Notes: generated from the sequence alone by a model not told the origin. A stretch of DNA of 32,000 bases from Psychrobacter cryohalolentis K5 (GCF_000013905.1 NC_007969.1:1110001-1142000), one strand, 5' to 3'; counted from the stretch's first letter, positions 881-23,576 are shown. Made by a program: numbers and translations.

Positions 881-3154
881 ATGAAAAACGTAGCTGACTC
901 AAATAATGAAGAATGGATGCAAGAGATTTGGGATTGGGCAGATAAATTTAATATTGAAAAAGATATTATCCCTAGAAAGCCAAAAAAATTAATTAAGTTA
1001 GAAGTACTGGAAATTAGTTACAATGATGAAATAAGTACAATACCTGAAAGTATTGGAAATCTTAAGAGTTTAGTAACTTTCGCACTAGAAGGAAGTAAAG
1101 TAAAAAAATTACCAAACAGTATCGGTGAATTATCTAAACTGAAGCAATTAGTAATTAGCAGTAATGATAAACTAACTGAACTTCCTAAAAGCATGGGTAA
1201 TCTTGAAAATTTGGAAGAACTTCAGTTGAGAGGAAATGGACTTAAAAAATTACCAGATAGTTTCGGGCAGCTATCAAACTTAATATACCTAACCATTAAC
1301 GGTAACTATAACTTAACTGAACTTCCTGAAAGTCTTGGAGGCCTTGAAAACCTAGAAAGCCTTACTTTAGGATACATGGGGATAACAAAATTACCAGAAA
1401 GTATTGGTCAGCTATCAAAATTAAAATATTTAACTATTGAAGATCTTGAAAACATAATTGATCTTCCTGAAAGTATTAAAGACCTTGGGAATTTAGAAAG
1501 CCTTACTTTAGAGAATAGTGGTTTTAAAAAATTACCAGAAAGTATTGGTCAGTTGTTAAATTTAACAAATTTAACTATTAATTATAATAATAATATCACC
1601 GAATTTCCTGAAAGTATTGGAAATTTAAATATTTTAGAATATCTTAGTTTAGGAGGTAATAGTGTTAAAAAATTACCAGATAGTATTGGAAAATTATTTA
1701 GTTTAAGAGAGCTAAACATTAGTAATATTGAAAAATCGATCGATATTCCTGAAAGTATTGGCAATCTTAAGAATTTAGAAAGCCTTAGTTTAGGATACAT
1801 AAATATTAAGAAATTACCTGAAAATATTTTTCAATTATCAAGTTTATTAAGTTTGACTATAGTAGATAATATGAAACTCACAGAAATTTCTGAAAATATT
1901 AATAAACTTAAAAATTTAGAGACACTCTATTTAAAAGGTAATAACTTTAAAAAATTACCTAGTAGTATTGGTCAGTTATCAAAATTGATAGATTTAAGTA
2001 TAGAATATACTGGAAAAATTACAGAAATTCCTGATAGCTTAGTAGAACTTAATAATTTACAGAATCTCACTTTATGTGGTATGGAAATAAAAAAACTACC
2101 TGAAAACATGAGTCACTTGTCATGTCTAACAAATTTAACAATTACACATAATAGAAAACTCACAGAATTCCCTGAGAGTGTTGCAGGTATTAAGAATCTA
2201 GAAATACTATCTTTAAATGAAAACAGTTTAAAAACATTATCTGAAAGCATAAATAAAATGGAAAATTTAAAATATTTATATTTAGCTTCTAATTCTTTAA
2301 AGTCTTTACCTGATTTATCGAATTTAATTAAATTAGAATATTTGGAATTAGATAACAACAAGTTGAATTCTCTTCCTGAAAGTATTATAGGTATGGAGAA
2401 TTTAGAATCAATGAGTGTCTATGGTAACCCTCTTAAAGCTATTTCGAAACCTGTATTAAGTTTTCTAAAAAATTTAGACGTTTACGTTGATGGAGTTGAT
2501 GAGGTTGATGAGGTTGATGAATCAGATTATTCAACTTCAAACATCTCTAATGAAAATGATACTTCAAGATTTCTTCAGGTAAATGGTTATGGGGTAGAGA
2601 CCTTTGCTGGTACTGTAGAGGCTGCAACGTATCAATACTTCGAAGATAATGATATAGATCTTGAAAGTTATAGTAATGATGCTGAGTGGGGTAATGATGA
2701 CTGCCAAGTTCCAGAGGAGCATAACTTTGGCGGGTATGGATTATATGAAGTCGATAATCTATGGCATGTCAACGGCGCTTATTTAACAGAAGATACTCAA
2801 ATTGAGTTGGTGAACGGTTCTGAAGATACAATCTGGAGTTCGAACTGTGATACTGAATCGCTTGAATCGCAAGGTATTAAGTTGATTTGCGTTTCAAGTC
2901 AAGAAGATATTTTTGATAGCTTAGATTTAAAGACAGTTGTCATGATTGGTAGAATTTTCCAACAAGGTTGTACTTTTGAGACTCAACTTCAGGATATTGA
3001 AAATTTTGATCCAAATAACCTGACTATCTACTACCATGAAGATGAAAGCGGACGTATTATTAAGAAAATTGAATACAATGATACTGAGCTTGAAAACGGC
3101 AATAGTAGTACTTCTGGTTCAGGATCTGAATATTCTTGGGAAGTCATTGGATAG
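881..3154 (+). CDS. large LRR protein: Trp-rich N-terminal cap + about 20 LRR units + uncharacterised ~190-aa C-terminal domain
   Basis: 757-aa ORF with an AGGG-type SD upstream of the ATG. It has about 20 tandem 23-24-aa units of consensus LxxLxxLxLxxNxxLxELPESIGxLxxL (e.g. LPESIGNLKNLESLSL). N-terminus: EEWMQEIWDWADKFNIEKDIIPRKPKKL. The C-terminal domain (about 2570-3151; NGYGVETFAGTVEAATYQYFEDNDIDL...EHNFGGYGLYEVDNLWHVNGAYL...LTIYYHED) is clearly homologous to the C-terminus of the 3443-5584 protein. No signal peptide, P-loop or TM segment seen. Confidence 0.9.
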   Translation: MKNVADSNNEEWMQEIWDWADKFNIEKDIIPRKPKKLIKLEVLEISYNDEISTIPESIGNLKSLVTFALEGSKVKKLPNSIGELSKLKQLVISSNDKLTELPKSMGNLENLEELQLRGNGLKKLPDSFGQLSNLIYLTINGNYNLTELPESLGGLENLESLTLGYMGITKLPESIGQLSKLKYLTIEDLENIIDLPESIKDLGNLESLTLENSGFKKLPESIGQLLNLTNLTINYNNNITEFPESIGNLNILEYLSLGGNSVKKLPDSIGKLFSLRELNISNIEKSIDIPESIGNLKNLESLSLGYINIKKLPENIFQLSSLLSLTIVDNMKLTEISENINKLKNLETLYLKGNNFKKLPSSIGQLSKLIDLSIEYTGKITEIPDSLVELNNLQNLTLCGMEIKKLPENMSHLSCLTNLTITHNRKLTEFPESVAGIKNLEILSLNENSLKTLSESINKMENLKYLYLASNSLKSLPDLSNLIKLEYLELDNNKLNSLPESIIGMENLESMSVYGNPLKAISKPVLSFLKNLDVYVDGVDEVDEVDESDYSTSNISNENDTSRFLQVNGYGVETFAGTVEAATYQYFEDNDIDLESYSNDAEWGNDDCQVPEEHNFGGYGLYEVDNLWHVNGAYLTEDTQIELVNGSEDTIWSSNCDTESLESQGIKLICVSSQEDIFDSLDLKTVVMIGRIFQQGCTFETQLQDIENFDPNNLTIYYHEDESGRIIKKIEYNDTELENGNSSTSGSGSEYSWEVIG
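2486..2521 (+). repeat. in-frame 9-bp tandem repeat, 4 copies (GTTGATGGA, GTTGATGAG x2, GTTGATGAA)
   Basis: Read directly from the sequence. Encodes VDG-VDE-VDE-VDE in the acidic linker between the LRR array and the C-terminal domain of the 881-3154 protein. Confidence 0.85.
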
Positions 3155-3442: not shown

Positions 3443-5584
3443 TTATATAATGACAAACCAAGACAATTCTTGTCTTTGTCCATATGAAGAACTTGACTCA
3501 TCTTCTATTATTTTACCGTCGTATTTAATCATTTTAATAACATCAATTCCATCGTCTTCGTGATAATAAATAACTAGTTTACTTGCATCGAATTTTTCAG
3601 TTAATTTAATTTTGGTCTTAAAAATGACACCATTTGAAACATACCTACCAGCTATAACAGCTAATGGTGTTGGTAATTCATTCACAATTTCGTCAAAATC
3701 ACCATCGCATATTATTTTAACACCTTGATCCTTTAGATCCTTCGAACTTAAAGAGCTTTGCCAGATACATGAATTATTACCATCGATAACTTCAATCTCA
3801 TTATCATCAATGTCTAAATATGCACCGTTTATATGCCATAAATCATCCGTTTGTTCAAGACCCATTCCTCCAAAATTATGTTCATCTGAGATATCTAATT
3901 CATCTAAGTCAAAAGTAACATCATGATTGTATTCATTAAGATCTATACCGTTATCTTCAAAATATTGATAAGTTTTAAAATCCACAGTACCTCCAAAAGT
4001 CTCTACACCAGTGCCATTAATTTGGATCGTTACTACATTATTTTTTTCACCATTGTTATTGATCATTTCAAGATTTTCATTAAGGCCAATTATACTAACG
4101 TTGATCATCTGAGATAAAACATTTAAAACCTGTGAACTTAGCGCATTATCATTAACAGGAATCCAAAACTCTTTCAAGCTATTAATTTCATTCATGCTAT
4201 TAGGCAATGTAGTGATTGGATTATCGTCAATATATATCTTTTCAATAAAACATAGCTTATTTATGGAATCAGGTAAAGTAGTTAGTTTGTTAGATCTACA
4301 ATTCAAATGACTTAAGTTTGACAATGAGCTTATTGAGTCAGGTAAAGTAGTCAATTCGTTATAACTACAGTCTAATTTTTTAAGATTTGACATCAAACCT
4401 ATTGAGTCAGGTAAAGTAGTTAATTTGTTATAACTACAATCTAAATAACTTAAGTTTGACAATGAGCTAATTGAGTCAGGTAAACATTTCAGTTTATTAT
4501 CAGTAATTATTAGATCAACTAAATTTTTAAGTGATCCTATATTCTCAGGCAGATATTTAATTTTATTGTTATAAATATCTAATTTTTCTAAAAGTTGTAA
4601 GTTTCCTATATTGCTTGGGAGTTCTATGAGTTCATTACATTCTAGGTTAAGAGACTTAAGGTTGGTTAAATTTTCAATATTTTTAGATAGTTTTTTTAAA
4701 TTACAATTTCGTAAGTTCAAATATTCTAAGGAAGGTAAATCAAAAAGAGAGTTATTTATTTTCATATTGTAATTTGAATCAAGGTCTAAATATTTTATAT
4801 TTTTTAGATCCTTAAAGTTATCAGGGATTGTTTTGATATCAAGGCCTGATAGGCGTAGTCTTTCTAAATATTGAAACTGAGTGACGATTTCAAGTGTATT
4901 TGAAATATTAAATGTATCAAAAAAATTAATGTAAAAAGCTAGATTCGATAATTTTTTTTGATTCAAGATAAAATCTGGAAATTTATCTTTTGAGTAGCTC
5001 CCAATTTCTATACTAGTTAAATTTTTTAAATGATTAATGCTTTGGGGTAATATTTCTATTGAATTAGAGCTATAGTGTAAAAGATTAAGATTTTCGAGAT
5101 TGCCTATAAGATCAGGAAGTTTTTTTAAATTATAGTTATTTTTTAAATTAAGGTGCTCTAAATTTTCTAACTCAGAAATACTCTCAGGTAAAGATTTAAT
5201 TTTTATATTAGTACTAACGTCTAAATATTTTAGCCCTTTTAATTTATTTATACTTTTTGGTAAAATGCTTATCTTATTATTATTTAACTTGAGAGTTTCA
5301 AGTTCATTTAATTTCATTAAAAATGCAGGAACTGACTTTAAATCTGAATTGCTTAAGTCAAGATATTTTAGTTTTTTTAAGTTTGAAAAAGCTTTAGGTA
5401 GTGGGTTTATGTACCTAAAAGTTCGACTACTATCAGATTCATAAACAACACTGCTAAATTTTTGTAGATTAATTAAGTCGCTGGCATTACGAGGTATATC
5501 TTGTTCGGATAAATCATTCTCATCCGCCCACTTCCAGATTTCTTCCATCCACGTTTCAGTCTGTTGAATACTGTTGTTTAGCAT
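3443..5584 (-). CDS. large LRR protein, paralog of 881-3154 (same cap, about 17 LRR units, same C-terminal domain)
   Basis: 713-aa ORF. N-terminus: ETWMEEIWKWADENDLSEQDIPRNASDL. LRR units such as LPDSISSLSNLSYLDCSYNKLTT. The C-terminal domain (about 3446-4035; NGTGVETFGGTVDFKTYQYFEDNGIDL...EHNFGGMGLEQTDDLWHINGAYL...LVIYYHED) aligns colinearly with the other paralog. Convergent with 881-3154. Confidence 0.9.
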   Translation of the reverse strand: MLNNSIQQTETWMEEIWKWADENDLSEQDIPRNASDLINLQKFSSVVYESDSSRTFRYINPLPKAFSNLKKLKYLDLSNSDLKSVPAFLMKLNELETLKLNNNKISILPKSINKLKGLKYLDVSTNIKIKSLPESISELENLEHLNLKNNYNLKKLPDLIGNLENLNLLHYSSNSIEILPQSINHLKNLTSIEIGSYSKDKFPDFILNQKKLSNLAFYINFFDTFNISNTLEIVTQFQYLERLRLSGLDIKTIPDNFKDLKNIKYLDLDSNYNMKINNSLFDLPSLEYLNLRNCNLKKLSKNIENLTNLKSLNLECNELIELPSNIGNLQLLEKLDIYNNKIKYLPENIGSLKNLVDLIITDNKLKCLPDSISSLSNLSYLDCSYNKLTTLPDSIGLMSNLKKLDCSYNELTTLPDSISSLSNLSHLNCRSNKLTTLPDSINKLCFIEKIYIDDNPITTLPNSMNEINSLKEFWIPVNDNALSSQVLNVLSQMINVSIIGLNENLEMINNNGEKNNVVTIQINGTGVETFGGTVDFKTYQYFEDNGIDLNEYNHDVTFDLDELDISDEHNFGGMGLEQTDDLWHINGAYLDIDDNEIEVIDGNNSCIWQSSLSSKDLKDQGVKIICDGDFDEIVNELPTPLAVIAGRYVSNGVIFKTKIKLTEKFDASKLVIYYHEDDGIDVIKMIKYDGKIIEDESSSSYGQRQELSWFVII
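4263..4484 (-). repeat. 69-bp tandem repeat (3 full units + partial) = recently duplicated 23-aa LRR units
   Basis: Units start at 4263, 4332, 4401 and 4470 with an exact 69-bp period. Each begins ATKGARTCAGGTAAA. They encode LPDSISSLSNLSHLNCRSNKLTT / LPDSIGLMSNLKKLDCSYNELTT / LPDSISSLSNLSYLDCSYNKLTT. Similarity is mosaic: the unit 1 tail (CTTAAGTTTGACAATGAGCT) is identical to the unit 3 tail, and the unit 2 head nearly equals the unit 3 head. Confidence 0.85.
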
Positions 5585-9796: not shown

Positions 9797-10543
9797 ATGA
9801 GTGAGTCAATGGAAATTTTAAGGTTGTTTGAATCAGATGACCGAATGAATAAATTCCAAAATTTATTTAAACAGCTCATCTATGTTCTGTCAGAAGAAAA
9901 CATTAAGTATGTGATTATTGGCACAGTGGCATACTCAGAGTATGCACCTCCTCGTGCGACCAACAACATTAATTTCATGATCTCTGAAAGTGACTGCTGT
10001 AAACTTGAAAGCGTCCTTAAAGAACATGGGATTGATTTTATATGGAATGCCTACCAACAGCTCATCATTGCCGTCAAAGATGATAGTGATGAGACTAAAA
10101 AATATCCTCTCGAACTTTCATTTCAACGCGCCCCTAAAGGTCTTACAGTTAATCGGCCCATACCTAAAGAGATATTTGGTGTGGCTGATGTACCTGTTGC
10201 TAGCCCTGAAGTATTAGTAGCGTTATGGTGTCTAGCAGTCATTAATGGTAATCCTAAGTCTTATTACGACGCTCAGATGGTGATTAAGCTACAGCTAGCA
10301 GACGTTGATAGATGCGCTGCTGTGATTGACAGTCTTCTTGAGAGTGATGCGAATAAAGTATTGCGTTCAATTCTCACAGGTAATGCTATGTATGTCGATA
10401 CGATCAATATGGGTGAAGCGCTTATTCTACCGTCTGATCTAATCCAGACTCATGAAGAGATTGAGTTGGTTAAAGCTCATCGCTATAACGCTGTGCAAGA
10501 GCGTCGGCGTCAATTGTGTAAGGCAATACAACAGACAAAATAA
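9797..10543 (+). CDS. hypothetical protein, possible degenerate minimal nucleotidyltransferase fold
   Basis: 248-aa ORF. YVIIGTVAYSEYAPPRATNNINFMI resembles the G-x-A...R-x-T-x-D-hDh strand-loop of small NTase-fold proteins (AbiEii/DUF6036-like), but with N-I-N where D-x-D is expected. VPVASPEVLVALW resembles the following 'spedLi..K' helix. This is a low-confidence fold call. The ORF itself looks real by length and codon usage. Confidence 0.55.
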   Translation: MSESMEILRLFESDDRMNKFQNLFKQLIYVLSEENIKYVIIGTVAYSEYAPPRATNNINFMISESDCCKLESVLKEHGIDFIWNAYQQLIIAVKDDSDETKKYPLELSFQRAPKGLTVNRPIPKEIFGVADVPVASPEVLVALWCLAVINGNPKSYYDAQMVIKLQLADVDRCAAVIDSLLESDANKVLRSILTGNAMYVDTINMGEALILPSDLIQTHEEIELVKAHRYNAVQERRRQLCKAIQQTK

Positions 10544-10657
10544 GGTGATCGTTTTCGTTTTTATTATACTGAGCTTATAAACCGGTGGAATGGTCGAATA
10601 ATAAAAGCGCTAGTTGATGGTACGCATATTTAAGCAGACTGCTCTAATGATCCCTGC

Positions 10658-10693
10658 TGTCAAATCCGTAGAAACAAATTTGGGAGATTTTAG
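10658..10693. repeat. IS terminal repeat copy 1 (TGTCAAATCCGTAGAAACAAATTTGGGAGATTTTAG)
   Basis: Matches copy 2 at 31 of the first 35 positions by hand alignment, in direct orientation. Confidence 0.75.
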
Positions 10694-10768
10694 TTACGCA
10701 GCCTGACGATAGTAATCAAACCACATCTGTATTGGCGTTTTATAGGCTAAATTTTTTTTGACCTCTAT

Positions 10769-10803
10769 TGTCAAATCTGTAGAAATTAACTTGGGAGATT
10801 TTA
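10769..10803. repeat. IS terminal repeat copy 2 (TGTCAAATCTGTAGAAATTAACTTGGGAGATTTTA)
   Basis: Direct repeat of 10658-10692, located 111 bp downstream. Confidence 0.75.
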
Positions 10804-11230
10804 TTATGGCTAAGCGACAGTAGTTGTCGTACACCCTATTTTATTCCCTTTCTTTCCACTGGTTTTTATACTATAGTTATTGAGTTAGGAAGAAATAACG
10901 AAACATCGTGACATAGAGTTAAGCCTCGAAGCGCAACGCTTCACCTTATAGCTCTGCTATTTTCGTTAACATTAAAAAGCTCTTAATTGATATTAACTAC
11001 TACCATTCTAATTATCAATAAACATAAGCAATCAAACGTAGCCCGCATAAAAATGCTGGTAATAAACCTCTTTTTGTCAAAAAAATAAGCTTAAAAAAAT
11101 TAACTCACTCATCTTGCCCCTACAACGTTGCTCAAAAAGCTGCGAGTAGACACGGCTGACTTAAAGCTTTGACTACCATAATTAAAAAACGCTACTAGCA
11201 AACTACCTTTAAAATAATAAGGACAATCCT

Positions 11231-12136
11231 ATGACGAATACAAAATGTATTTTCGAGAAAAAACGCATAGACAATGTACAGTGGTCAGGTGTATCAAGAA
11301 TATCAAGTTTACCGTCACTACCGAATGATGGTAAATCCCCACCACTTAAAATTCCGTTGTTCTATCTGACTAGCGTGTCTATTAACGATTATGAAGATGA
11401 TATCTATTTTGTTAATAATACCGATCAGACGCTACACTTTGTAGCGCCATTTAAGCTATATCAGAACTTAAATGAAGCGGGTGCCAAGCTCGGTGATGTC
11501 AGTGTTGAAAATCTAAATAAAGTGACGTTTTATAGCAATGATATGGACCGGTTATACACTGACGTACTTCCCAATCAAGGCGTGCGTATTGATAGTACTC
11601 ATATCATTTATGACAGTGATTATTTGATACAGCACTTTATTCATGTTCCGTTTAAGGGGCTTGATACCCATTATGGTATTTGGCGCTTTAACGTGGTTGA
11701 AAAAGGTGGGATTGGTCAGAGCTATCCACTATTGTGGGATGACTTTAGTAAGCCCTCACATATGGTCAGTTGTGACTGTATGTCTGAGCGAGGTGAGATA
11801 CCGATAGAGCCTTCAGTGTATGAAGAACGCTGTTGGGTATTAGATAGTCTGATCCAGTCTCTTGGTGTGACTAATGCCATATTTATACTGGCTATTAATG
11901 ATGTACTGTACCGTTATTGTGTGGGCTGGAGCGCGCCCTATAACGAGTCTGATATACAGGCAAAAGACATTGCCCGTAAATTACAAGAGCTAAAGCCTAG
12001 CGATGCTGATGCGGTAGAAGAGATTATCCAAGCCGTTTATGATTTCTGGTTTAACGTGGGCTTTGCTAAGAATATTCCGGTGGAGGCTTGCGCGGAGATT
12101 TTAGATTTGTATAAAGAGTGGATGGCTAATAATTAA
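11231..12136 (+). CDS. hypothetical protein (no family recognised)
   Basis: 301-aa ORF with a good SD (AAGGA 7 nt upstream of the ATG). Followed 14 nt later by the hydrolase gene. No motif recognised. Confidence 0.7.
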   Translation: MTNTKCIFEKKRIDNVQWSGVSRISSLPSLPNDGKSPPLKIPLFYLTSVSINDYEDDIYFVNNTDQTLHFVAPFKLYQNLNEAGAKLGDVSVENLNKVTFYSNDMDRLYTDVLPNQGVRIDSTHIIYDSDYLIQHFIHVPFKGLDTHYGIWRFNVVEKGGIGQSYPLLWDDFSKPSHMVSCDCMSERGEIPIEPSVYEERCWVLDSLIQSLGVTNAIFILAINDVLYRYCVGWSAPYNESDIQAKDIARKLQELKPSDADAVEEIIQAVYDFWFNVGFAKNIPVEACAEILDLYKEWMANN

Positions 12137-12150
12137 AAAAGGAGAAAGCC

Positions 12151-12735
12151 ATGATGTTTCCCATTGAAAATAACGACACATTTTTACTATTCTTTCACGG
12201 TCTTGATTCAAGCTGTGAGACCAATAAATACACCTGTATTAAACGTGAGCCCAAATATTGCCAAACCGTCAATTATAGAGATGATTTCGAAGAGATTTTC
12301 AATATTTATGACATATTAATTCAAGAAAAAATGAAGCAGTATCCGCGAGTAGTATTAGCAGGGCACTCACTTGGTGGATGGTTTGCCAATCATTTTGCGC
12401 ATAAATACAATCTGCGTGCGCTATTGATTGCGCCCTGCATTTATCCTAGTGAGGTATTAGCCGATCGTATTCCGCAAGTCGCTGATATGAAATTGTCTTT
12501 TCCCACCTCAAATACTGAAATGGTACGAGTGATGATAGAGGTCGATGATGAGTCTTTGGATGTGGCCGTCGCTAGACGAACGTTAGTGAATTTACCTGAC
12601 AGCTGGGAGGTGGAGTATTTTGAGAATGGTCATCACCGTATTGCCCGCAGTGAAGATATTTGGTATCACTTAGTTCACCTGTGCGAAGATCCCATTATCT
12701 GGATGGATGAGGCGACGTATCATGGGGAAGAATAA
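12151..12735 (+). CDS. small alpha/beta-hydrolase, YqiA/UPF0227-like esterase
   Basis: 194 aa with a strong SD (AGGAG). FFHGLDSS oxyanion-type start, nucleophile elbow AGHSLGGW (GxSxG), and C-terminal ENGHHRI as candidate catalytic His. Size and motif order match YqiA-like esterases. Confidence 0.75.
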   Translation: MMFPIENNDTFLLFFHGLDSSCETNKYTCIKREPKYCQTVNYRDDFEEIFNIYDILIQEKMKQYPRVVLAGHSLGGWFANHFAHKYNLRALLIAPCIYPSEVLADRIPQVADMKLSFPTSNTEMVRVMIEVDDESLDVAVARRTLVNLPDSWEVEYFENGHHRIARSEDIWYHLVHLCEDPIIWMDEATYHGEE

Positions 12736-12858
12736 CCGATACTACAATTATTGATTAAATCGCCTGATATTTAACTAATTTTATATTCTAACCTAGAATA
12801 TATATTTCTAGGTTGCTTGTTATGATAGCTACTATGATAAACACATAGGCTTATCGTT

Positions 12859-13716
12859 ATGACTGCTTCCCTAAATAACAGTCCTTCAAAAGCTAATCTC
12901 TCTATAGCACAAGCCTGTGCAATCACCTTCCAAGGTAATGCCAGTAATGACCTACAACAAGATGCTTTTTTCTTTTTGGACAATTGGTATCAAGAAGACT
13001 TAGGGGTGATGGCAGTGACACCAGTGGCATCTCCTTTTTGCTTAGCAGTGTCTGATGGTGTGGCAAGCTCTAATCATTCACAGCACTGCTCAAAGGCAGT
13101 GGTGAAAGCAATTAGCCGGTTATGGAGTGAGCGGAAGAGCATCCGTTCAGACAGTATTCATCAGCTGATTAATCAAGCCAAACATTCATCTAAGCGTCAT
13201 GATGCAGCGGCAACCCTCGCGATGGTAGTGGGAGAAGTAAATAGTGAAGGCTTAGTAAAGGCAACGATAACCCATGTAGGGGATAGTCGTGTTTACTGGC
13301 TACCCGAAGGCACGTCACAATGGCAATGTCTGACTCGTGATCATAACTTGCTAAATGAACTCATTGATCAGCAGGCACAGGAGCAAGGTCGGCAAGCGGA
13401 GTTTTCTGACTATAACCGAGAAGGAATGGCGGGGAGTCTGTATAGCATTACTGAGTGCTTTGCCTTAACCACTGATGACAGCTATATAAGCAGTGAAGCA
13501 CCAGAAGCCAACTCTTGCACTATTGATGTTAATAGTGGCGACTGTCTCTTGGTTTGTACGGATGGTATTCATGACTTAGTGCCAAGTCATAACTGGCAAA
13601 CTGTCAGTGCACAGACAGATTTGCAGGAGTGGCTCATCACTCTTAAAAATCAGGTCTATGACTCCGATGGCAATGCTTATGATAATGGCACCGCAATTGT
13701 GGTTCGTTTTGATTGA
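12859..13716 (+). CDS. PP2C-family (PPM) Ser/Thr protein phosphatase
   Basis: 285 aa. PPM motifs in the right order: AVSDGVASS, THVGDSRVYW, LLVCTDGIHDLV, DNGTAIVVRF. Confidence 0.85.
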   Translation: MTASLNNSPSKANLSIAQACAITFQGNASNDLQQDAFFFLDNWYQEDLGVMAVTPVASPFCLAVSDGVASSNHSQHCSKAVVKAISRLWSERKSIRSDSIHQLINQAKHSSKRHDAAATLAMVVGEVNSEGLVKATITHVGDSRVYWLPEGTSQWQCLTRDHNLLNELIDQQAQEQGRQAEFSDYNREGMAGSLYSITECFALTTDDSYISSEAPEANSCTIDVNSGDCLLVCTDGIHDLVPSHNWQTVSAQTDLQEWLITLKNQVYDSDGNAYDNGTAIVVRFD

Positions 13717-14858
13717 ACATTTATCTTAATAATAAAGTGATGAGCTCATCACGTAATAGAGTAAATACTATGTCCACGCATCCAATCGCCAGCTATACAA
13801 AGTCGACACGTCTATTTGCTTTATATCAATGTCTGCCTCGTAGTGAAGCGGATGCTGTGTCACTGACAGAGTTGATGATTGGTTATGGTGATAATCCAGA
13901 TAATTTCGCTAATGAGCGTAAAAACTTAGAGAACGATCTGATTGGCTTAAATCAAATCTTTAACGGTATTTTTTATAGTGATGCATTAGTTCGAGTACCG
14001 GAATGGGGGCAAAATATCAGCGGACAAACAGCACGCTTTTATATTGAACCGAGCTTTAGTATCGACGTTCTTAACGAGCAAACAGTGTTCTTTTGGGAGA
14101 TGCTTGATAAATATACCGCAAACTATTTACCAGTGTCTTTTAAACAAGGAATCACAGATAAGCTCACCCAATTAGGCCGGCACAATAAGGATGGTTTCCA
14201 TCAAAGTAAGCTTGGGCAATGGCAAGATTATCTCATCACTTTACCTAGTATTGTGCAAGCACCGACGCTTAATAATGAGGTGGTTGCAAGTATTCATCAA
14301 GCTTTGCTACAAAATCATCAACTACGGATAATCTATCAAAAGAAATGGGCAGGAGAGTCAGCTGTAAGAGTGGTATATCCCAAAGGGCTTATCTTCATCG
14401 ACAATATGGTTTATCTCACAGGCTTTGATCCTACTGATGATCATATCGATGATGAAGCACTGTTAAAAGCGCATCGTAATTTTGCAATCAATCGTATTAC
14501 CGAGGCAGTAGTCATAGATAAGCCGATACCTGACTGGGTAGGGCGAGATACTTTTTCATTAGAGCATTTGCATAAACTGGGTAGGTTAGAGCCGACTGAT
14601 AGTGCACAGATCAAACTGGTTTTAGAGGTACAAAGATATGCCTGTCAGCATTTATACGAGCGTCCGTTATCGATAGATCAAAAAATTATTGCTATCGATG
14701 ACACTTGGAATCAAGTCAGTGCCACTGTTGCCAATACGCTTCGTCTGCAAGATTGGCTGGTAAGTATGTCACAGTTGTCTGTTGTCATTGAGCCACCAGT
14801 GCTAAAAACCGTAATTCTAGAGCGCTTACATAGTGCGTTAGAGTTATATGGAGATTAA
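13713..14858 (+). CDS. HTH-WYL-WCX transcriptional regulator (BrxR/CapW/PafBC-like architecture)
   Basis: N-terminal wHTH-like RLFALYQCLPRSEADAVSLTELM. WYL domain LRIIYQKKWAGESAVRVVYPKGLIFIDNMVYLTGFD...HRNFAINRITEA. C-terminal extension ...LRLQDWLVSMSQLSVVIEPPVLKTVILERL, typical of the WCX domain. The track start is TTG 13713 (4-nt overlap with the PP2C stop). ATG 13740 or ATG 13770 are alternative starts. Confidence 0.8.
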   Translation: MNIYLNNKVMSSSRNRVNTMSTHPIASYTKSTRLFALYQCLPRSEADAVSLTELMIGYGDNPDNFANERKNLENDLIGLNQIFNGIFYSDALVRVPEWGQNISGQTARFYIEPSFSIDVLNEQTVFFWEMLDKYTANYLPVSFKQGITDKLTQLGRHNKDGFHQSKLGQWQDYLITLPSIVQAPTLNNEVVASIHQALLQNHQLRIIYQKKWAGESAVRVVYPKGLIFIDNMVYLTGFDPTDDHIDDEALLKAHRNFAINRITEAVVIDKPIPDWVGRDTFSLEHLHKLGRLEPTDSAQIKLVLEVQRYACQHLYERPLSIDQKIIAIDDTWNQVSATVANTLRLQDWLVSMSQLSVVIEPPVLKTVILERLHSALELYGD

Positions 14859-14932
14859 GATTCAGTTATTAATAATGTGATCTTAAATTATTTAACGAAG
14901 AGTTGATTCTCAACTTTAACAGGAAGTTTAAA

Positions 14933-15934
14933 ATGATAACAAACAATACTACTACTGCAAAACCATGGATGTCAGAGCTGTGGACATGGGCCGATGAGTA
15001 TGGGATTTCTGAAAAGGATTTACCACGAAACGAAGCGCATCTATTGACGATAACAGAATTGGAGATCTGCTCTGACCAGATTACTGAGCTGCCTGAAAGT
15101 ATTGGTTACTTACACAACCTAACCCATTTAGCCCTAAACTGCAAAGCGCTTGAACGTTTGCCAGAGTCTATAGGTCAATTAAGTCAGTTAGAGCGATTGA
15201 CGATTACTAGTGATGAGGTTAAGCAACTTCCTGAGAGCTTTGCTAGGCTAATCAGTTTGAGTTCGCTAAATATTCCTACTCACTTAAGCAATCAGCTACC
15301 CACGACTCTTATGGATAAGTATCATAATGAAAATGAAACGTTATATATAGAGCGTATGGCTTTCACTTCGTTATATAGCCCCTTGGAAAAGAATTATGGC
15401 TTATCCTTTTTCGGGTTTGTTCTTATTAGTGATGATTGGAATGAAAAAGCACTAATTGATTTAAAGTTCAAAGCAGCATTAGAGTTCTTACTCGTTTTGC
15501 AAACCACTGAACAAACTATTGATGATTTTGATGTGGTGGATGGCGTGATCATTTGCAAGCCTGATGAAGTACAAAAAATAATAAATATGTTTGAAACTAC
15601 TTTCGACTATTCTGTGATGGCTATAGACTTTGGAGATGTTAGAGAAGCAATAAATTTTGCGAAACCTGCTAAATTTATACAAGCTAGTGCATTAGAAGTG
15701 TCTGAATCAGACAAAGTATTTAGTCAGATTATTGATCAAATTCCTAAAGAGATAACCGTAAAATCTGTGATGTTTCAAGTGGAAAGTAACCGTTATTTTA
15801 CAGTGGATGAGTTCAAAGTTATGTCAGATACTATTGATAATATGGGTGCAGAGGATGAACATATTTTCTATAGTGCAAAAGTTGTCGATAAGCCTGAGCA
15901 CTGTTGGATGGGTATGATATATATGGTTGGGTAA
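14933..15934 (+). CDS. short LRR protein: same Trp-rich cap + about 4 LRR units + distinct C-terminal domain with FtsZ C-terminal-subdomain-like features
   Basis: ATG 14933 is preceded by AGGAAG; the track ORF starts at TTG 14903. Cap: KPWMSELWTWADEYGISEKDLPRNEAHL. LRRs such as ITELPESIGYLHNLTHLAL, LERLPESIGQLSQLERLTI, VKQLPESFARLISLSSLNI. C-terminal ~105 aa: MAIDFGDVREAI...TVDEFKVMSDTI...CWMGMIYMVG. Confidence 0.8.
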   Translation: MITNNTTTAKPWMSELWTWADEYGISEKDLPRNEAHLLTITELEICSDQITELPESIGYLHNLTHLALNCKALERLPESIGQLSQLERLTITSDEVKQLPESFARLISLSSLNIPTHLSNQLPTTLMDKYHNENETLYIERMAFTSLYSPLEKNYGLSFFGFVLISDDWNEKALIDLKFKAALEFLLVLQTTEQTIDDFDVVDGVIICKPDEVQKIINMFETTFDYSVMAIDFGDVREAINFAKPAKFIQASALEVSESDKVFSQIIDQIPKEITVKSVMFQVESNRYFTVDEFKVMSDTIDNMGAEDEHIFYSAKVVDKPEHCWMGMIYMVG

Positions 15935-15958
15935 TGTGGTATTGAGAGAATCTATTTT

Positions 15959-16024
15959 GAACCGCCCCGGGATTGTCAGAGACTGATTTACTTGATTCAG
16001 GCACGGACAATCCTGGGGCGGTTC
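15959..16024. terminator. GC-rich 19-bp inverted repeat between convergent operons (likely bidirectional terminator or REP-like hairpin)
   Basis: GAACCGCCCCGGGATTGTC (15959-15977) pairs with GACAATCCTGGGGCGGTTC (16006-16024) with one G/A mismatch (a G-U pair in RNA) and a 28-nt loop. Sits exactly between the stops of the 14933-15934 (+) and 16026-16763 (-) genes. Confidence 0.6.
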
Positions 16025-16025
16025 A

Positions 16026-16763
16026 CTACTCTTGATGTTTCCAGCTTTCTTGGTTTAATGGCATTTGGTTGAGTAAATCTCGTCTAGATCGCCAATCGGG
16101 CATGTGAGTGTCCAGCAGGGCTTTAAACTTGTCATTGTGCTGCCGCTCTTTAAAATGTAGCAGTTCATGCAAGATAATATATTCCAAGCAGGGCAGAGGC
16201 TTTTTAGCCAAATCTAAGTTAAGCTGTATATTGCCTCCTTCTATATTACAGCTGCCCCATTTGGTTTTCATTTTTTGGATCTGCCAACTGTTTATAGCGA
16301 CGCCAGTTTGCTTAGACCATTTATTAATAAGATCAGGTGCTCTTACTTTTAAGCGGTTACGATAGTATTCATTCAATAGCTTCAGCTTCACTTCATCTGA
16401 GGCATCAATATTTACGGTTAGTATAAGCTTACCGCTTTTTAGTTTGACCGTCTGAGATTTGAGTGTATCGCTCTCAATCACTTCAAGTCGGTAGCGTCTG
16501 CCCCAAAGATAATGCGTCTCTCCATTTACCATCTCACGCGCTGATTGGCGCTCTTGCTTGGCAAACGCCGCCTGTTGCCGTCGAATCCAAGGTATACGGT
16601 GGATGACAGCCATCCGAATGGCCGTCTCGGTCATAGCATCAGGCGCAGATACTCTGACCTGTCCATCAGGTGGCATCACGCTAATATGTAGGTTTTTAAT
16701 ATCTTTGCGAGTTAAATGTATATCTAACTCACCAATCTTAATAAGCGCTGACTTAACAATCAC
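16026..16763 (-). CDS. DUF45 / YgjP-like (M48-type) zinc metallopeptidase
   Basis: 245 aa with the HExxH motif in YIILHELLHFKERQHNDKF near the C-terminus, as in DUF45/YgjP proteins. Its start overlaps the hsdR stop by 4 nt. Confidence 0.8.
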   Translation of the reverse strand: MIVKSALIKIGELDIHLTRKDIKNLHISVMPPDGQVRVSAPDAMTETAIRMAVIHRIPWIRRQQAAFAKQERQSAREMVNGETHYLWGRRYRLEVIESDTLKSQTVKLKSGKLILTVNIDASDEVKLKLLNEYYRNRLKVRAPDLINKWSKQTGVAINSWQIQKMKTKWGSCNIEGGNIQLNLDLAKKPLPCLEYIILHELLHFKERQHNDKFKALLDTHMPDWRSRRDLLNQMPLNQESWKHQE

Positions 16764-19927: not shown

Positions 19928-22099
19928 TCAGCGTCCTTCTATCTTGAGATTCAAAGCACCTTCAAAAAGTCTTAGCATCTCGTTTTCATGTTCAATGATT
20001 TGATCATAACCCCATTGATATTGATTGTCTTTTGGATTGAAGACTTTAATCATTTTGTATAGCTTAAGTGAGTCGATATGACTTTTAAACGACTCATCAT
20101 AGTGTTCTTTTTTAGCTAAGGGCTGGTGATTACTAACGCGAGAGTTAAGACTTCTGTTGATGAGGCACAGATTACCAAAACGATGAATGTCGATTCTATC
20201 GTCAATTTTTTCATCTTTATGTATGGGGGTCTGAGGTAAGAAGTGTTCAATAGAGCCTTGTGTAGAGGGTCTAAACTTCTTTTTATCCCCTGATTCAACA
20301 TTACCACTCAACCAAATCAAGTAATCTAAGTAGTTGAATACAAAGACATTGACATGAGGGTATCTTAGTTGTTGTGACAGTTTCTCAAATTCAATCGTTC
20401 GAGGTGATAACGACTGACTGGACAATGTCATCTCACTATTATCATTTATATGGCGACTAAACTCTTGAAAGTAATCATTGACGATATTATTAGGCTTGGT
20501 TCGATCAGATTGAGCGATATACCTTCTAAGCATATATGCTTTAGCCAGCCCATCAAGATAGCTCAGAAATGCTTTGCCATCGATACCTTGTTCACGCTTA
20601 TCAAACGTCAAATAGAGATACTGCAAGCAGGCATTTAACCAGTATTTAGAATTAAGAGTAGGTGCAGACACATGAAAGGCGCTTTGCAGAGTAACCAAAC
20701 TGGCATTTAAGTCTGGTCCAGTTGAGTCTTTTGGCATATTTTGTTTATAAGAAGGACCTGACGCCTCATTGTTTAGCTGCTCAAGGGTCCAATAGCCTTT
20801 CTTAGACTCTGTATTACGCTTGATAATATATTGATCAAATAAAAACTTTGATTTCAATAAGGTGTAAAGGAACTGCTCTATTTTAGCTACCTTATTGGTC
20901 ACCTTAGAACCAATCAAATGATTATCAAATTCAATCAATAACTGCTTATCATCAAGCGATACGATGTCATTTTGAGGGTTGTCAGTCAGATTTTGAGTCA
21001 CGTGTACTCTTAAAACCTGCAATAAAAAATTGGGAAAATCTATCAAACTATAATAGGTTTCATCATCCTCATCGCCCTTATTCTTTTTGGCTGGATTAGT
21101 GGGTATATCAACAGTATCATTAAATAAAATGTCATTTAAGCTAATGATATTTTGAGCCTCTACTTTTTCTGAGGCTGTTTTAGAGTTATCTTTACTCTTT
21201 TTGGCAGCTTGCTCGTTGCAATCTTGAATATAAAAATCAAGCAAATCAGAAAAATATTTTGGCTCAAAATGTGCCCAGTCTGATGAGAAAATCTTTTTAC
21301 GTAGATCAGTTGTAAAGCCATATTGCACGTACTTATTCATACGACTGCAAGTATTCCAAATCAAATCTAACAGGCTTTTGCAATGTTGTATTTGCTTTGT
21401 GTCGGCAGAAGTGTCACTGCTAATTGCTGATAGCAGTCTGGCCTTAATGATTTCGTGTTTTTCTAATTGCTCACCTCGATTGTTCATTACTTCAAAGTAG
21501 TGATTAAGGTCTGTCTCCTGAGGAACAGGAACCCTAGCTATCTCTACCTTATTGAATAAAAAGGTACAAAATTCATTGATGGATGTGACTTCATTATTTC
21601 CATTAAAAAGATACGTCATCGTTTTGGTTAAGATATCATAACCATCGATAATAGACTGATTCATAGAGGCATCTTGGGCAAAGCGTGCTGACTCACGGTT
21701 ATAAAGCAAAGATAAGGTGTAATCTGAATGTGGGCGACTTTCAAAATATAAGTTTGTCTGGTTGAATTGTTCTAAATAAGAGTGACAATACTGATGATGA
21801 TTGTGATGTAAATATATTGCCAGTAGGGTTAGGGTAGTTAAGCGTTGCTGACCATCTATCACTTCAAACAAAGCCTGACTGGTATTGGATTTTTCAAAGA
21901 CAACTAAAGTACCTAAATAGTAGGTTAAGTTTGGGTCACGATTATAAGCGTCAATAATATCTTTGATTAATGTTTCAATTTCAACAGTGCCCCACGCATA
22001 GTTACGCTGATACATCGGAATGACATACTGATCGCCATTGGTCAGCAGTTTTTTGATAGGTAAAGAACTTACTTTCACACTTGAGTTATTCATTGTCAT
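19928..22099 (-). CDS. DUF262 + DUF1524 protein (GmrSD-family type IV restriction enzyme-like)
   Basis: 723 aa. N-terminal DUF262/ParB-like motifs IPMYQRNYAW and VIDGQQRLTTLTLL. C-terminal His-Me/HNH-like DUF1524 motifs SIEHFLPQ...IHRFGNLCLINRSLNSRVSN. 3-nt gap to hsdR and 1-nt gap to the upstream DUF262 gene. Confidence 0.85.
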   Translation of the reverse strand: MTMNNSSVKVSSLPIKKLLTNGDQYVIPMYQRNYAWGTVEIETLIKDIIDAYNRDPNLTYYLGTLVVFEKSNTSQALFEVIDGQQRLTTLTLLAIYLHHNHHQYCHSYLEQFNQTNLYFESRPHSDYTLSLLYNRESARFAQDASMNQSIIDGYDILTKTMTYLFNGNNEVTSINEFCTFLFNKVEIARVPVPQETDLNHYFEVMNNRGEQLEKHEIIKARLLSAISSDTSADTKQIQHCKSLLDLIWNTCSRMNKYVQYGFTTDLRKKIFSSDWAHFEPKYFSDLLDFYIQDCNEQAAKKSKDNSKTASEKVEAQNIISLNDILFNDTVDIPTNPAKKNKGDEDDETYYSLIDFPNFLLQVLRVHVTQNLTDNPQNDIVSLDDKQLLIEFDNHLIGSKVTNKVAKIEQFLYTLLKSKFLFDQYIIKRNTESKKGYWTLEQLNNEASGPSYKQNMPKDSTGPDLNASLVTLQSAFHVSAPTLNSKYWLNACLQYLYLTFDKREQGIDGKAFLSYLDGLAKAYMLRRYIAQSDRTKPNNIVNDYFQEFSRHINDNSEMTLSSQSLSPRTIEFEKLSQQLRYPHVNVFVFNYLDYLIWLSGNVESGDKKKFRPSTQGSIEHFLPQTPIHKDEKIDDRIDIHRFGNLCLINRSLNSRVSNHQPLAKKEHYDESFKSHIDSLKLYKMIKVFNPKDNQYQWGYDQIIEHENEMLRLFEGALNLKIEGR

Positions 22100-22100
22100 A

Positions 22101-23576
22101 TTATTCTCCTGACGTATCTATGTAGTTGAGACAATTAAATAACGTGTAAATATCGCTATCACTTTTATTGGTGTCATTGTTAGGTTTATGGTTATTTGCT
22201 AATTCACTGATTTTAAGAGACGGTATAGAAGTAATGACCACGTTCTTTGGTAATATCGCCTCGTTGATACGCATGAACATACCTGTATTCTTTGATGCGT
22301 GATTATCGATTGTACTCAGGCCGACACCATAGTTTGTTAATCGAACGTTATAAGCCCACGCAAATAGTAGCTCCACCGCCTGTGACAGCTCTTCTGTGCC
22401 AAATTTATCAATATAATAAATTAACGCATTATCAAAGACGTTACGGGTCAGCTTGTCGCCTTTACGCCTTCGTTGATAGTCATTATAAGAATCTAAGGTA
22501 TTTATTATTTTGGAGGCGCGGTTGTTTAAGGCGTGATCAAACAGGGTAACGATTTGCTTAGAATCAGACGTTTGATCATTATTAATGGCCTTGTACTTGG
22601 TTATCAGAGCATCGTAATGTGCCACCATTTCAAAAAACCGTCTTCCGTTAATGATGGTTTGGTCAATTGAAAAGGGATAAGCAGTGGGCTTGCCTGCGAT
22701 TTTGCAATGAACGCTGTTGTTATAGTCATCAATATAGTGGTGAGTGATGGCTAAGCGTCTGGTATAGGGCGGAAGTGTCTTGGCCTCTAGAGTAATGCCT
22801 TTGAATTCTGCGACATCATCTTTGGTAAATGTCTGCGCTGACTGACCTCGTGACCAGCGTCTAATACGATATAAATGATTTGAGAATAATTTGGCCAGTC
22901 TGTCATCATCGAGATTCTCCCAATAGTCGACAGTCTTCTTCCTTAATGCATTATCGTCAGTTTTAAACTCACGTAAATGAAATGCTTTTAGCAAGTCATG
23001 TGGGAATAAGTCTTTACCTCGTGAATTTTGAGAGTCAAAAAATTGAAACGCTTCAGACTCTTTATCTAATACAAATATCACCACGTCGCATCGCGTTAAT
23101 AAAAACTCAATATGCTTAAGGGTAAAGTCGCCTCTATTAATGATATTAGAGATAACCTTATAGTTTTCATATAAGTTATAGAGCGAGAAGTCATCTTTAA
23201 ATTGAGGTTTGTTAATAAAAGCTTGAACTTTTTGAGGCAGATTCCCCAATACCCTATCAATGCTTTTGGCGTCATCTGACGCTTTATTATTGTTACAATA
23301 GGTATTGATGGCTAGTAAAGCCAACATTAGGGTAAGGGTGCGCTGTTGACCATCGACAATATCTAAGACGCCTTTTTCGGTATTATTGTGCAATACCACC
23401 GTACCTAAACGGTAGGCCGGTTTATCGCTGTGCATTCTAATGTCATCAAATAAGCTAACGACATTTTCAGCCGTCCATTTATAGGGGCGTTGGTATTCAG
23501 GTATCGTCAGTGACGGTACGCTAAGGAAGTCTTTCACAGATATAATTTTTTGATGTAATTCTTGTGAGTTGCTCAT
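22101..23576 (-). CDS. DUF262-only protein (GmrS-like NTPase/ParB-like domain)
   Basis: 491 aa. IPEYQRPYKWT and IVDGQQRTLTLMLALL motifs. No C-terminal HNH-type motif seen. Confidence 0.8.
   Translation of the reverse strand: MSNSQELHQKIISVKDFLSVPSLTIPEYQRPYKWTAENVVSLFDDIRMHSDKPAYRLGTVVLHNNTEKGVLDIVDGQQRTLTLMLALLAINTYCNNNKASDDAKSIDRVLGNLPQKVQAFINKPQFKDDFSLYNLYENYKVISNIINRGDFTLKHIEFLLTRCDVVIFVLDKESEAFQFFDSQNSRGKDLFPHDLLKAFHLREFKTDDNALRKKTVDYWENLDDDRLAKLFSNHLYRIRRWSRGQSAQTFTKDDVAEFKGITLEAKTLPPYTRRLAITHHYIDDYNNSVHCKIAGKPTAYPFSIDQTIINGRRFFEMVAHYDALITKYKAINNDQTSDSKQIVTLFDHALNNRASKIINTLDSYNDYQRRRKGDKLTRNVFDNALIYYIDKFGTEELSQAVELLFAWAYNVRLTNYGVGLSTIDNHASKNTGMFMRINEAILPKNVVITSIPSLKISELANNHKPNNDTNKSDSDIYTLFNCLNYIDTSGE

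Follow-up and report, generated by a model that had tools for sequence, protein, structure and literature searches.

WYL-family regulators sense single-stranded DNA (ssDNA) and sit beside bacterial defence systems (PMC11662680, PMC9122601); sensing of ssDNA has been described for members such as PafBC (PMC11804915), and one WYL activator, DriD, induces an inhibitor of cell division (PMC9186387, PMC4211646). The division protein FtsZ is itself the target of a toxin, CbtA (PMC5624674). Kaur, Burroughs, Iyer and Aravind (2020) describe FtsZ/tubulin domains as rare "cell-division-related" effectors in NTP-dependent conflict systems, and GTPase-centric conflict systems can include tubulins, a PP2C phosphatase being present as well in one of their variants (PMC7159879). 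Here, we analyse a locus of Psychrobacter cryohalolentis K5 in which a PP2C gene, a WYL gene and a gene for a leucine-rich repeat (LRR) protein lie in tandem, at positions 12859-15934 of a 32,000-nucleotide stretch (NC_007969.1:1110001-1142000; the whole stretch is referred to below as the window).

The C-terminal 199 amino acids (aa) of the third protein are, as judged by profile comparisons and structural models, a truncated, FtsZ-derived pseudo-GTPase, which we call mini-FtsZ. Comparison of related loci indicates that PP2C, WYL and mini-FtsZ very probably constitute a conserved functional cassette. An earlier, sequence-only reading of the window had pointed to three co-directional genes, and these are present according to both open reading frame (ORF) calls and Pfam matches. 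The features of the locus are as follows.

12859-13716, plus strand: gene of a PP2C-family Ser/Thr phosphatase, 285 aa, ATG start.
13770-14858, plus strand: gene of a WYL-WCX protein, a presumed regulator, 362 aa from the ATG at 13770; alternative starts at 13740 and 13713.
13713-14858, plus strand: longest ORF of the WYL gene, TTG start.
14903-15934, plus strand: longest ORF of the third gene, TTG start, 343 aa.
14933-15334, plus strand: LRR part of the third protein, an N-terminal cap and four leucine-rich repeats (LRR_14 match and AlphaFold 2 (AF2) model).
15335-15934, plus strand: mini-FtsZ, a truncated FtsZ-like domain of 199 aa, without G-box, T7-loop D98/D101 kept.
12790-12814, no strand: operator-like palindrome O1, AACCTAGAA-N7-TTCTAGGTT, which overlaps the PP2C promoter in its -35 and spacer region.
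12821-12826, plus strand: probable -10 hexamer TATGAT of a putative promoter, conserved at -38..-33.
12827-12851, no strand: degenerate palindrome O2, located after the -10 hexamer and before the start codon, with consensus aGCCTtTATGATAAAcATATAGGCt.
15959-16024, no strand: GC-rich hairpin with a 19-bp stem, resembling a repetitive extragenic palindromic (REP) element, between the convergent LRR/mini-FtsZ and YgjP genes.

The relationship of the C-terminal domain to FtsZ emerges at the level of profiles. Single mini-FtsZ sequences retrieved nothing useful from PDB (phmmer), Pfam or PHROGs and reached Pfam FtsZ_C in just 3 of 34 members (best E=0.0034), and no Pfam, PADLOC or PHROG model covers the family. 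A profile built from the 34 diverse members matched approximately 45 FtsZ chains in PDB (best E=2.4e-7), with profile positions 76-193 aligned to FtsZ helix H7 and the C-terminal domain, and hhalign of mini-FtsZ with residues 197-303 of E. coli FtsZ gave a probability of 80% and E=1.3e-5. When the window domain was modelled by AF2 with the 34-sequence alignment, the mean predicted local distance difference test score (pLDDT) was 92.3 and the predicted TM-score (pTM) 0.88; a model of the whole LRR protein, made with a shallow alignment of 25 sequences, had a pLDDT below 60 in the C-terminal domain. In a Foldseek search of PDB with the mini-FtsZ model, the top 50 matches were all FtsZ (E 7.5e-9 to 5e-7, probability 1.00; TM-score on the query 0.43-0.64, and 0.56-0.64 for most), and since the alignments span ca. 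196-227 columns, the superposition with FtsZ extends over the two halves of the 199-aa domain. Among viral models, only phage FtsZ and tubulins were matched. The earlier guess that the protein ends in an "FtsZ_C-like" domain is thus borne out by three separate searches (PDB profile search, hhalign and Foldseek).

Mini-FtsZ is approximately 100 residues shorter than the FtsZ core (199 versus ca. 300 aa) and is without the N-terminal third of FtsZ. The G-box GGG[TSA]G (FtsZ signature GGGTG(T/S)G) is found in none of 181 mini-FtsZ members; the loop that matches it reads SDDWNE. Because the domain is short and has no G-box, we regard it as a derived pseudo-GTPase and not as FtsZ. The T7 loop can be recognised: I-D98-F-G-D101-V of mini-FtsZ aligns to L-D-F-A-D-L of FtsZ (D209 and D212 in E. 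coli), with D98 being D in 20 of the 34 members (N in 7) and D101 being D in 25 (E in 4). The alignments and models suggest that the nucleotide face is gone from mini-FtsZ and that the face reaching into the GTP pocket of a neighbouring subunit is still there.

The family is rare, with 72 clusters at 50% identity found by profile search among 1.84 billion cluster representatives. In these clusters, mini-FtsZ invariably forms the C-terminus, whether it stands by itself or is preceded by LRRs of differing length; the stand-alone proteins of 207 and 221 aa discussed below are homologues of the C-terminal 199 aa of the window protein and are 29-36% identical to it. No match to mini-FtsZ was found in phage genomes. 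Several further observations concern the family. The PDB chains 22hq_A and 22hr_A match the mini-FtsZ profile with 33.8 bits, a score that exceeds those of all other FtsZ chains by about 10 bits, and share an "IFYG" motif with it; if 22hq is a Moraxellaceae FtsZ, this would suggest that mini-FtsZ derives from the host's own FtsZ. A motif GNSI(Q/K/R)(E/D)YL(K/R)(K/R)Q is present in the C-terminal tail of Moraxella mini-FtsZ proteins (L050:10816-11619 and 11666-12463, L053:10809-11621, L058:11444-12232) and also at the N-terminus or in the linker of long LRR/mini-FtsZ proteins. Representatives that contain it are P0241, P0242, P0244, P0250, P0259, P0261, P0266, P0275 and P0276; it is absent from the window protein. 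The motif may be a docking site or a phospho-site.

To place the locus among its relatives, one genome per species was scanned with the PP2C protein as a seed. The scan returned 58 loci, mostly from Psychrobacter, others from Moraxella osloensis/Enhydrobacter and one from Acinetobacter, with several genomes carrying two differing copies. In Psychrobacter, PP2C and WYL genes are nearly always adjacent and head a modular array, which is drawn from genes for the 221-aa protein, the LRR protein, DUF1810, PDDEXK_4 nucleases and the 207-aa protein. A hidden Markov model (HMM) of mini-FtsZ was counted on the ca. 46 PP2C loci with enough downstream DNA; ca. 41 of them contain mini-FtsZ, often in two or three copies. 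In only 14 loci plus the window, about one cassette in three, is mini-FtsZ fused to LRRs, with four or more repeats. A cassette typically comprises 4-6 genes: DUF1810 and a further mini-FtsZ are added, and in many cases also a gene of the PD-(D/E)XK, Mrr or SIR2-like type. Three homologues of the third protein lie in the order PP2C - WYL - [PDDEXK_4] - LRR/mini-FtsZ - DUF1810 within three flanking contexts (McrBC...HsdR; SLT...integrase; Cas6). The triad of PP2C, WYL and LRR genes that the sequence-only reading had proposed is syntenic in many genomes and flanks, but the LRR is an optional add-on and not a fixed member. The idea of a three-gene system has to be given up: the conserved partner is mini-FtsZ, usually as a stand-alone protein, and the three-gene form seen in the window appears to be a product of deletion (see below).

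More distant loci show other arrangements. In Moraxella, the order is PP2C-miniFtsZ-miniFtsZ-SIR2-like-miniFtsZ...WYL; one locus has a PP2C (50% identical) followed by mini-FtsZ and an Mrr nuclease (L073), another has mini-FtsZ beside a WYL gene that is 65% identical (L070), and in a third mini-FtsZ is followed by PDDEXK_4 (L076). As distant members keep the same gene company, the association is real. As far as seen in the sequences compared, the cassette appears restricted to Moraxellaceae (Psychrobacter and Moraxella osloensis/Enhydrobacter). One could argue that PP2C-WYL is a unit of its own and that the downstream genes, LRR/mini-FtsZ included, are the cargo of an insertion hotspot without joint function. 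The content after WYL is indeed highly variable and includes stand-alone candidates (PDC-S26, PDC-M15 and GmrSD), and one plasmid carries a mini-FtsZ gene without PP2C or WYL. Yet a family of merely 72 clusters adjoins PP2C in ca. 41 of ca. 46 loci, the linkage holds through changed gene order, changed flanks and PP2C identity down to 45-50%, and the loci examined point toward an enrichment of mini-FtsZ near PP2C/WYL. Because the family is rare and the linkage persistent, mere co-location is disfavoured, and we consider it improbable. The preferred reading remains that of a cassette of PP2C, WYL and mini-FtsZ.

Two sets of observations on the distant loci are recorded here. A SIR2-like gene (motif GAGMGVDSGLPDFRG; the SIR2 call was made by eye and has no PADLOC match) lies among the mini-FtsZ genes of Moraxella/Enhydrobacter (L050:12456-13313, L053:11578-12471, L049:10876-11721, L051:12250-12864 and L058:12225-13082). 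These loci also have a divergent gene for a ParA-like protein (209 aa) and an 81-aa gene upstream of PP2C. In L072 (2021-8885), mini-FtsZ is fused to an FtsK_gamma winged helix, and the island around it contains a canonical HTH-WYL (helix-turn-helix) gene, two dynamin-like or MMR_HSR1 GTPases, a HEPN protein, UmuDC and type I restriction-modification (R-M; HsdR). It is possible that this locus represents another type of mini-FtsZ system.

The window is collinear with two loci, L011 and L001, on both sides of a deletion. The distance from the LRR gene to ygjP is 85 bp in the window versus ca. 1.4 kb in L011 and L001, where the interval encodes DUF1810 and a 207-aa mini-FtsZ; window segment 15939-16024 stands in place of these DUF1810 and mini-FtsZ-2 genes. 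Judging from this collinearity, the three-gene form of the window is a deletion derivative of a fuller cassette. The hairpin GAACCGCCCCGGGATTGTC...GACAATCCTGGGGCGGTTC at 15959-16024 marks the junction of the ca. 1.4-kb deletion and is probably a bidirectional terminator that closes the unit. An arm of this hairpin recurs at L025:17300-17318 and at L028:3749-3767 and 15354-15372, in the manner of a REP-type element; a search of positions 10400-16200 against Rfam gave a single match, a chance miRNA hit on this hairpin. In P. glacincola (L009), the third protein is identical to that of the window while the PP2C is 89% identical, and DUF1810 and PDDEXK_4 follow. An identical third protein beside an 89%-identical PP2C indicates mosaic exchange.

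The surroundings of the cassette are those of a defence island. In the window, it lies between McrBC and type I R-M/GmrSD genes, with Zorya nearby, and 22 of the 58 loci abut homologues of the window McrBC, type I R-M or GmrSD genes; one abuts Cas6. By the models of PADLOC-DB 2.0, the PDDEXK_4 genes of the cassettes correspond to the candidate PDC-S26, and PDC-M15A/B is present in one cassette of Moraxella. Sequence change is far faster in the third protein than in PP2C and WYL: it is 47-87% identical among homologues, versus 79-92% for PP2C and 83-86% for WYL, and 52-63% identical to its homologues in L001, L004 and L005, where PP2C and WYL reach 82-86%. From these sequence comparisons, we put the chance that the cassette has a conflict or defence role at about even.

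If such a role exists, mini-FtsZ could be a sensor: it would have no action on FtsZ itself but mimic the FtsZ surface that is hit by phage division inhibitors (Kil, Gp0.4 or SulA-like), binding of the inhibitor, aided by the LRR, would be the trigger, and the linked PD-(D/E)XK, Mrr or SIR2-like genes would be the effectors, an arrangement resembling the integrated decoys of plant nucleotide-binding LRR receptors. The multiplication of mini-FtsZ (1-3 per cassette), its faster evolution compared with PP2C and WYL, its fusion to the LRR, a typical recognition module, and the presence of nuclease or NADase-type genes in most full cassettes all fit this scheme. However, the window and several other cassettes contain no nuclease and still have an intact mini-FtsZ gene, PDC-S26 nucleases are stand-alone candidates elsewhere, and a decoy has no need of the catalytic T7 aspartates, which are nevertheless retained. 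We also know of no phage inhibitor of Psychrobacter FtsZ. A decoy is, in our estimate, unlikely to be the explanation.

The N-terminal part of the third protein matches Pfam LRR_14 (E=1.1e-11, residues 52-126 of the 343-aa ORF), leaving approximately 200 C-terminal residues without Pfam assignment. AF2 predicts four 23-residue repeats, with pLDDT mostly 87-94 over residues 11-110 and strands at 42, 65, 88 and 111. Full-length homologues were found in Psychrobacter only (ca. 110 clusters, 47-98% identical); elsewhere, the LRR part alone matches. The cap motif W..E.W.WAD..I....PR is common to the third protein and to the two giant LRR ORFs of the window (881-3154, plus strand, and 3443-5584, minus strand), in agreement with the earlier suggestion that the LRR module is shared with these two paralogues. 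The giant proteins additionally share an unannotated C-terminal domain of ca. 190 aa (VNG.GVETF.GTV...YQYFEDN.IDL...HNFGG.GL...WH.NGAYL), which has no match in Pfam or to the mini-FtsZ HMM. NCBIfam matches of the third protein to the type III effectors XopAE, XopAC and XopL (E=1.9e-18 to 5e-11) raise the alternative of a secreted host-interaction effector of the XopAE, XopL or IpaH type that PP2C and WYL regulate. These matches span the LRR alone (residues 39-137) and are far under the cut-offs (66.7 bits versus 600), and the conserved part of the protein is a cytosolic FtsZ fold that mostly comes without LRR; we give this alternative hardly any credence.

The first protein of the cassette matches Pfam PP2C_2 (E=2.1e-11, 44.2 bits versus a cut-off of 24) and, under the family cut-off, NCBIfam Stp1 (E=1.8e-17). 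Its matches in PDB are PP2Cs of the cyanobacterial tPphA type (E=7e-4), with HVGDSR and CTDG aligning to tPphA. The metal-site motifs QQD35, SD66G, GD142SR, TD235G and YD275N are intact and are invariant or nearly so in 10 homologues. Identity is 79-92% across Psychrobacter, 45-52% in Moraxella osloensis/Enhydrobacter loci and 44% in one Acinetobacter locus; no relatives were found in IMG/VR. The sequence-only reading had noted no vWA or kinase partner for the phosphatase, and Pfam indeed shows neither domain in window neighbours or in the called genes of L001-L005. No STAS or GHKL domain was found among window ORFs or locus genes, where the SpoIIE match reached merely E=0.034. With no vWA, kinase or STAS domain, membership in the TerY-P or partner-switching (RsbU/SpoIIE) type fails. 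Small Acinetobacter plasmids carry a distant PP2C that is 25% identical (L068, NZ_CP068191.1, 4546-5771; L069, NZ_CP118895.1, 3928-5748). It follows conserved small hypothetical genes and adjoins Fic, nucleotidyltransferase, S-4TM or toxin-antitoxin genes; this context is different from that of the cassette and may be unrelated.

The second protein matches Pfam WYL (E=1.7e-10) and WCX (E=5.1e-7), both above cut-offs, as well as the PADLOC WYL model (E=9e-20), and is 83-86% identical in L001, L004 and L005. It had been likened to HTH-WYL-WCX regulators, and the WYL and WCX parts of that comparison hold. An N-terminal HTH was not detected: phmmer and profile searches of PDB gave none, Pfam found no HTH family in the N-terminal 120 aa of 5 homologues (a faint PuR_N match, E=0.011, in one), and in hhalign with a canonical HTH-WYL protein only the WYL-WCX part aligned. 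The N-terminal ca. 180 aa are without family assignment.

Upstream of the PP2C gene, the hairpin AACCTAGAA-TATATAT-TTCTAGGTT at 12790-12814 that was reported previously is a perfect 9+9 palindrome located 44 nt before the ATG. Its exact motif, O1, is unique in the window, where 0.22 matches would be expected by chance at up to 3 mismatches. In 24 loci, the 25-bp O1 (consensus AACCTAgAAAATAaatTTAtAGGTT) has precisely the same position relative to the PP2C ATG, -69..-45, and it occurs, shifted or as a variant, in nearly all remaining loci, even where the PP2C is only ca. 50% identical. Of O1, the left half-site is retained in Moraxella loci, with TATAAT after it. The two arms have changed in concert in L020 and L022 (CTGTAA/TTACAG), as expected for a DNA site that binds a dimer. 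A hexamer at -38..-33 is conserved in the consensus of the 24 loci and in Moraxella loci, reading TATGAT in the window and TATACT or TATAAT elsewhere. The second palindrome, O2, is conserved at -32..-8 in the 24 loci; by our own count, it equals O1 at 17 of 25 positions, and as RNA it folds into a second hairpin. It could be either a second operator or a hairpin of the 5' untranslated region. A terminator at 12790-12814 is ruled out by the absence of a T-run, by AT-richness, by the fixed spacing to the -10 hexamer and by the co-variation of the arms. Because there is no T-run and the sequence is AT-rich, O1 and O2 are read as a candidate operator pair that brackets the -10 hexamer. It had been suggested that the hairpin either separates the unit from the upstream gene or acts as an operator; the fixed position and co-variation favour the operator and not the insulator. 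The WYL protein would be the obvious binder of both palindromes.

The strict conservation of operator and promoter, together with the conservation of PP2C and WYL at ordinary-gene levels (79-92%), would also suit a checkpoint for damage or stress that is not concerned with immunity. According to this alternative, PP2C and WYL form an SOS-independent pair, ssDNA leads to an FtsZ-like division inhibitor, and the island is merely a recombination hotspot. WYL regulators do sense ssDNA (PMC11662680, PMC11804915), and in Caulobacter DriD induces the division inhibitor DidA (PMC9186387, PMC4211646). On the other hand, the cassette is accessory and mosaic, is sometimes duplicated with different content and lies among R-M, McrBC, GmrSD and Cas genes, and a housekeeping role needs neither 1-3 fast-diverging paralogues nor LRR fusions and nuclease or SIR2-like neighbours. 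We consider a checkpoint quite unlikely.

The explanation that we prefer overall, and to which we assign no better than an even chance, is that of a reduced island cassette, controlled by WYL and PP2C, in which mini-FtsZ blocks cell division or a foreign tubulin. By analogy with CapW, DriD and PafBC, the WYL protein would bind O1/O2 and repress or activate the operon, keeping expression low until a signal arrives, and the signal would be ssDNA from infection or damage. Mini-FtsZ would then dock its T7 ("bottom") face on the GTP-bearing end of a protofilament of the FtsZ/tubulin type and, having no nucleotide face of its own, would cap the filament and stop its growth. The outcome would be either an arrest of division that serves as growth arrest or abortive infection, or a block of a phage or plasmid tubulin. 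The LRR may set the specificity for partner or trigger, and PP2C may set a threshold or reset the system by dephosphorylation. The broader proposition, that a conflict system recruited a truncated FtsZ with no nucleotide pocket and an intact T7 face as a filament-end cap or integrated decoy, with a WYL switch and a kinase-less PP2C in control, is put forward tentatively; filament capping as the specific mechanism is somewhat more doubtful still.

A number of points weigh against this explanation. The T7 aspartates are conserved in just 59% and 74% of the mini-FtsZ family, and the assignment of the N-terminal subdomain to FtsZ S4-H4-S5-S6 is one we infer from the order of secondary-structure elements. 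Binding of DNA by the WYL protein is only assumed, because no HTH was detected, and among the loci with complete ORF listings none showed a kinase partner for PP2C. The pace at which PP2C and WYL change is as slow as that of ordinary genes. PADLOC 2.0 has no match for PP2C, LRR/mini-FtsZ, stand-alone mini-FtsZ, DUF1810 or the SIR2-like gene. If nuclease and SIR2-like genes are effectors, mini-FtsZ is likelier to be a sensor than an effector; these genes may equally be independent single-gene cargo, PDC-S26 being a one-gene candidate. The window copy may be crippled, as it has no DUF1810, second mini-FtsZ or nuclease. Since nearly all loci come from one bacterial family, the synteny is partly inherited and not independently retained. 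Finally, on the only plasmid with a stand-alone mini-FtsZ (Psychrobacter pP62BP1, L008, NC_019274.1, 5495-6561, 221 aa), the gene comes directly after one for a HicA toxin and a 60-aa ORF, and PP2C and WYL are both absent; there, mini-FtsZ may be part of a toxin-antitoxin-like module.

Gene boundaries and neighbours in the window are as follows. The ATG at 14933 is the likeliest start of the LRR gene, being preceded by a Shine-Dalgarno sequence, AGGAAG, and with this start the gap of 74 nt between the WYL and LRR genes (14859-14932) noted earlier is right. The reported overlap of the PP2C and WYL genes exists only with the TTG start at 13713 and is probably a longest-ORF artefact. In the homologue alignment, WYL proteins start with MPTHPIAS, which corresponds to the ATG at 13770 in the window (MSTHPIAS), or perhaps to the ATG at 13740, so the spacing is probably ca. 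25-55 nt. The neighbours named in the sequence-only reading, an alpha/beta hydrolase upstream and YgjP-HsdR of a type I R-M system downstream, are real by Pfam. The island comprises the two giant LRR proteins, McrBC, the cassette, YgjP-HsdR, two DUF262/GmrSD-type genes, HsdS and HsdM; it also holds the ZorB1 gene of a type I Zorya system, preceded by an ORF that is a probable zorA. The two DUF262-family genes (19928-23576), one with GmrSD_N and GmrSD_C and the other with GmrSD_N and DUF7834, are inserted into the operon of the type I R-M system, where hsdR and hsdS flank them, and the same pair flanks many PP2C cassettes (L010, L012, L014, L015, L018, L026, L037 and L066). Immediately upstream of the cassette, a 301-aa ORF without family match (11231-12136) and a UPF0227/YqiA-like hydrolase gene (12151-12735) form a pair that is also found upstream of the cassette in L004, L009, L011 and L032 (41-95% and 88-97% identical, respectively). 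These two genes recur in only five loci and lie beyond the conserved PP2C promoter; they are therefore neighbours and not core genes. A 98-bp stretch (10648-10745) in the non-coding region 10543-11231 recurs inverted at L009:14742-14839 with 86% identity and may be the remnant of a miniature inverted-repeat transposable element or of an insertion sequence (IS) end, consistent with the "IS scar" seen there before.

The analysis defines a rare, previously unannotated family, an apparent FtsZ-derived pseudo-GTPase that is tied to PP2C and WYL in Moraxellaceae defence islands. If mini-FtsZ does cap or mimic FtsZ, the cassette would represent a new coupling of infection or DNA-damage sensing to the division machinery, a natural, genetically encoded binder of FtsZ ends and the first case of an immune or conflict module with a cytoskeletal pseudo-GTPase as its basis. 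With its conserved two-operator promoter, a WYL protein that looks HTH-less and a kinase-less PP2C, it offers a test bed for WYL switches and bacterial PP2Cs, and the loci, which range from five or more genes to the three-gene form of the window, provide a natural deletion series.

The earlier impression that no system with this combination had been described agrees with the outcome of our searches: there was no PADLOC match, and no description of the cassette or of the mini-FtsZ family was found in the searchable literature with combinations of PP2C, WYL, LRR, FtsZ and DUF1810. Individual features do have counterparts. As in the BREX and CBASS loci headed by BrxR or CapW, a WYL+WCX gene lies 5' of variable island genes (PMC9122601, PMC11662680), and, also as in those loci, a palindrome overlaps the cassette's own promoter, with a likely role as a switch. 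Unlike BrxR and CapW, the cassette WYL protein has no detectable HTH, an unusually long N-terminus (ca. 180 aa) and no sequence match to solved WYL regulators, and its gene nearly always follows a PP2C gene of its operon; no mention of a phosphatase is made by Picton et al. The TerY-P triad and the kinase-kinase-phosphatase system of Pf prophages resemble the cassette in using PP2C as a regulatory part of a stress or conflict module, but neither the window nor the loci listed in full contain a gene for a vWA protein or a Ser/Thr kinase, in which the cassette differs from TerY-P. The systems of Kaur et al., which come mainly from Firmicutes and Actinobacteria, have MoxR-vWA or GAP1-type GTPases at their core, accompanied by kinase and vWA proteins; the cassette has none of these.

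The coupling of a WYL-family protein to a protein expected to interfere with division recalls DriD-DidA of Caulobacter (PMC9186387, PMC4211646). DidA, however, is not an FtsZ homologue but a small membrane protein, which acts by suppressing synthesis of the septum (PMC4211646), DriD has a clear HTH, and the pair is found outside defence islands, without PP2C, LRR or nuclease. The proposed block of FtsZ polymer growth through the longitudinal interface would be shared with SulA, MciZ and the toxin CbtA, inhibitors that bind filament ends or the T7 face, and FtsZ is an established target for toxins of mobile elements (PMC5624674, PMC11938149). The three inhibitors are unrelated small proteins or peptides, whereas the candidate inhibitor here appears to be a truncated paralogue of FtsZ itself. 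To our knowledge, there is no described example of a truncated FtsZ paralogue that acts as an FtsZ inhibitor. The locus is thus best compared to WYL-headed island cassettes, with a signature protein that is new and that could prove new in mechanism as well.

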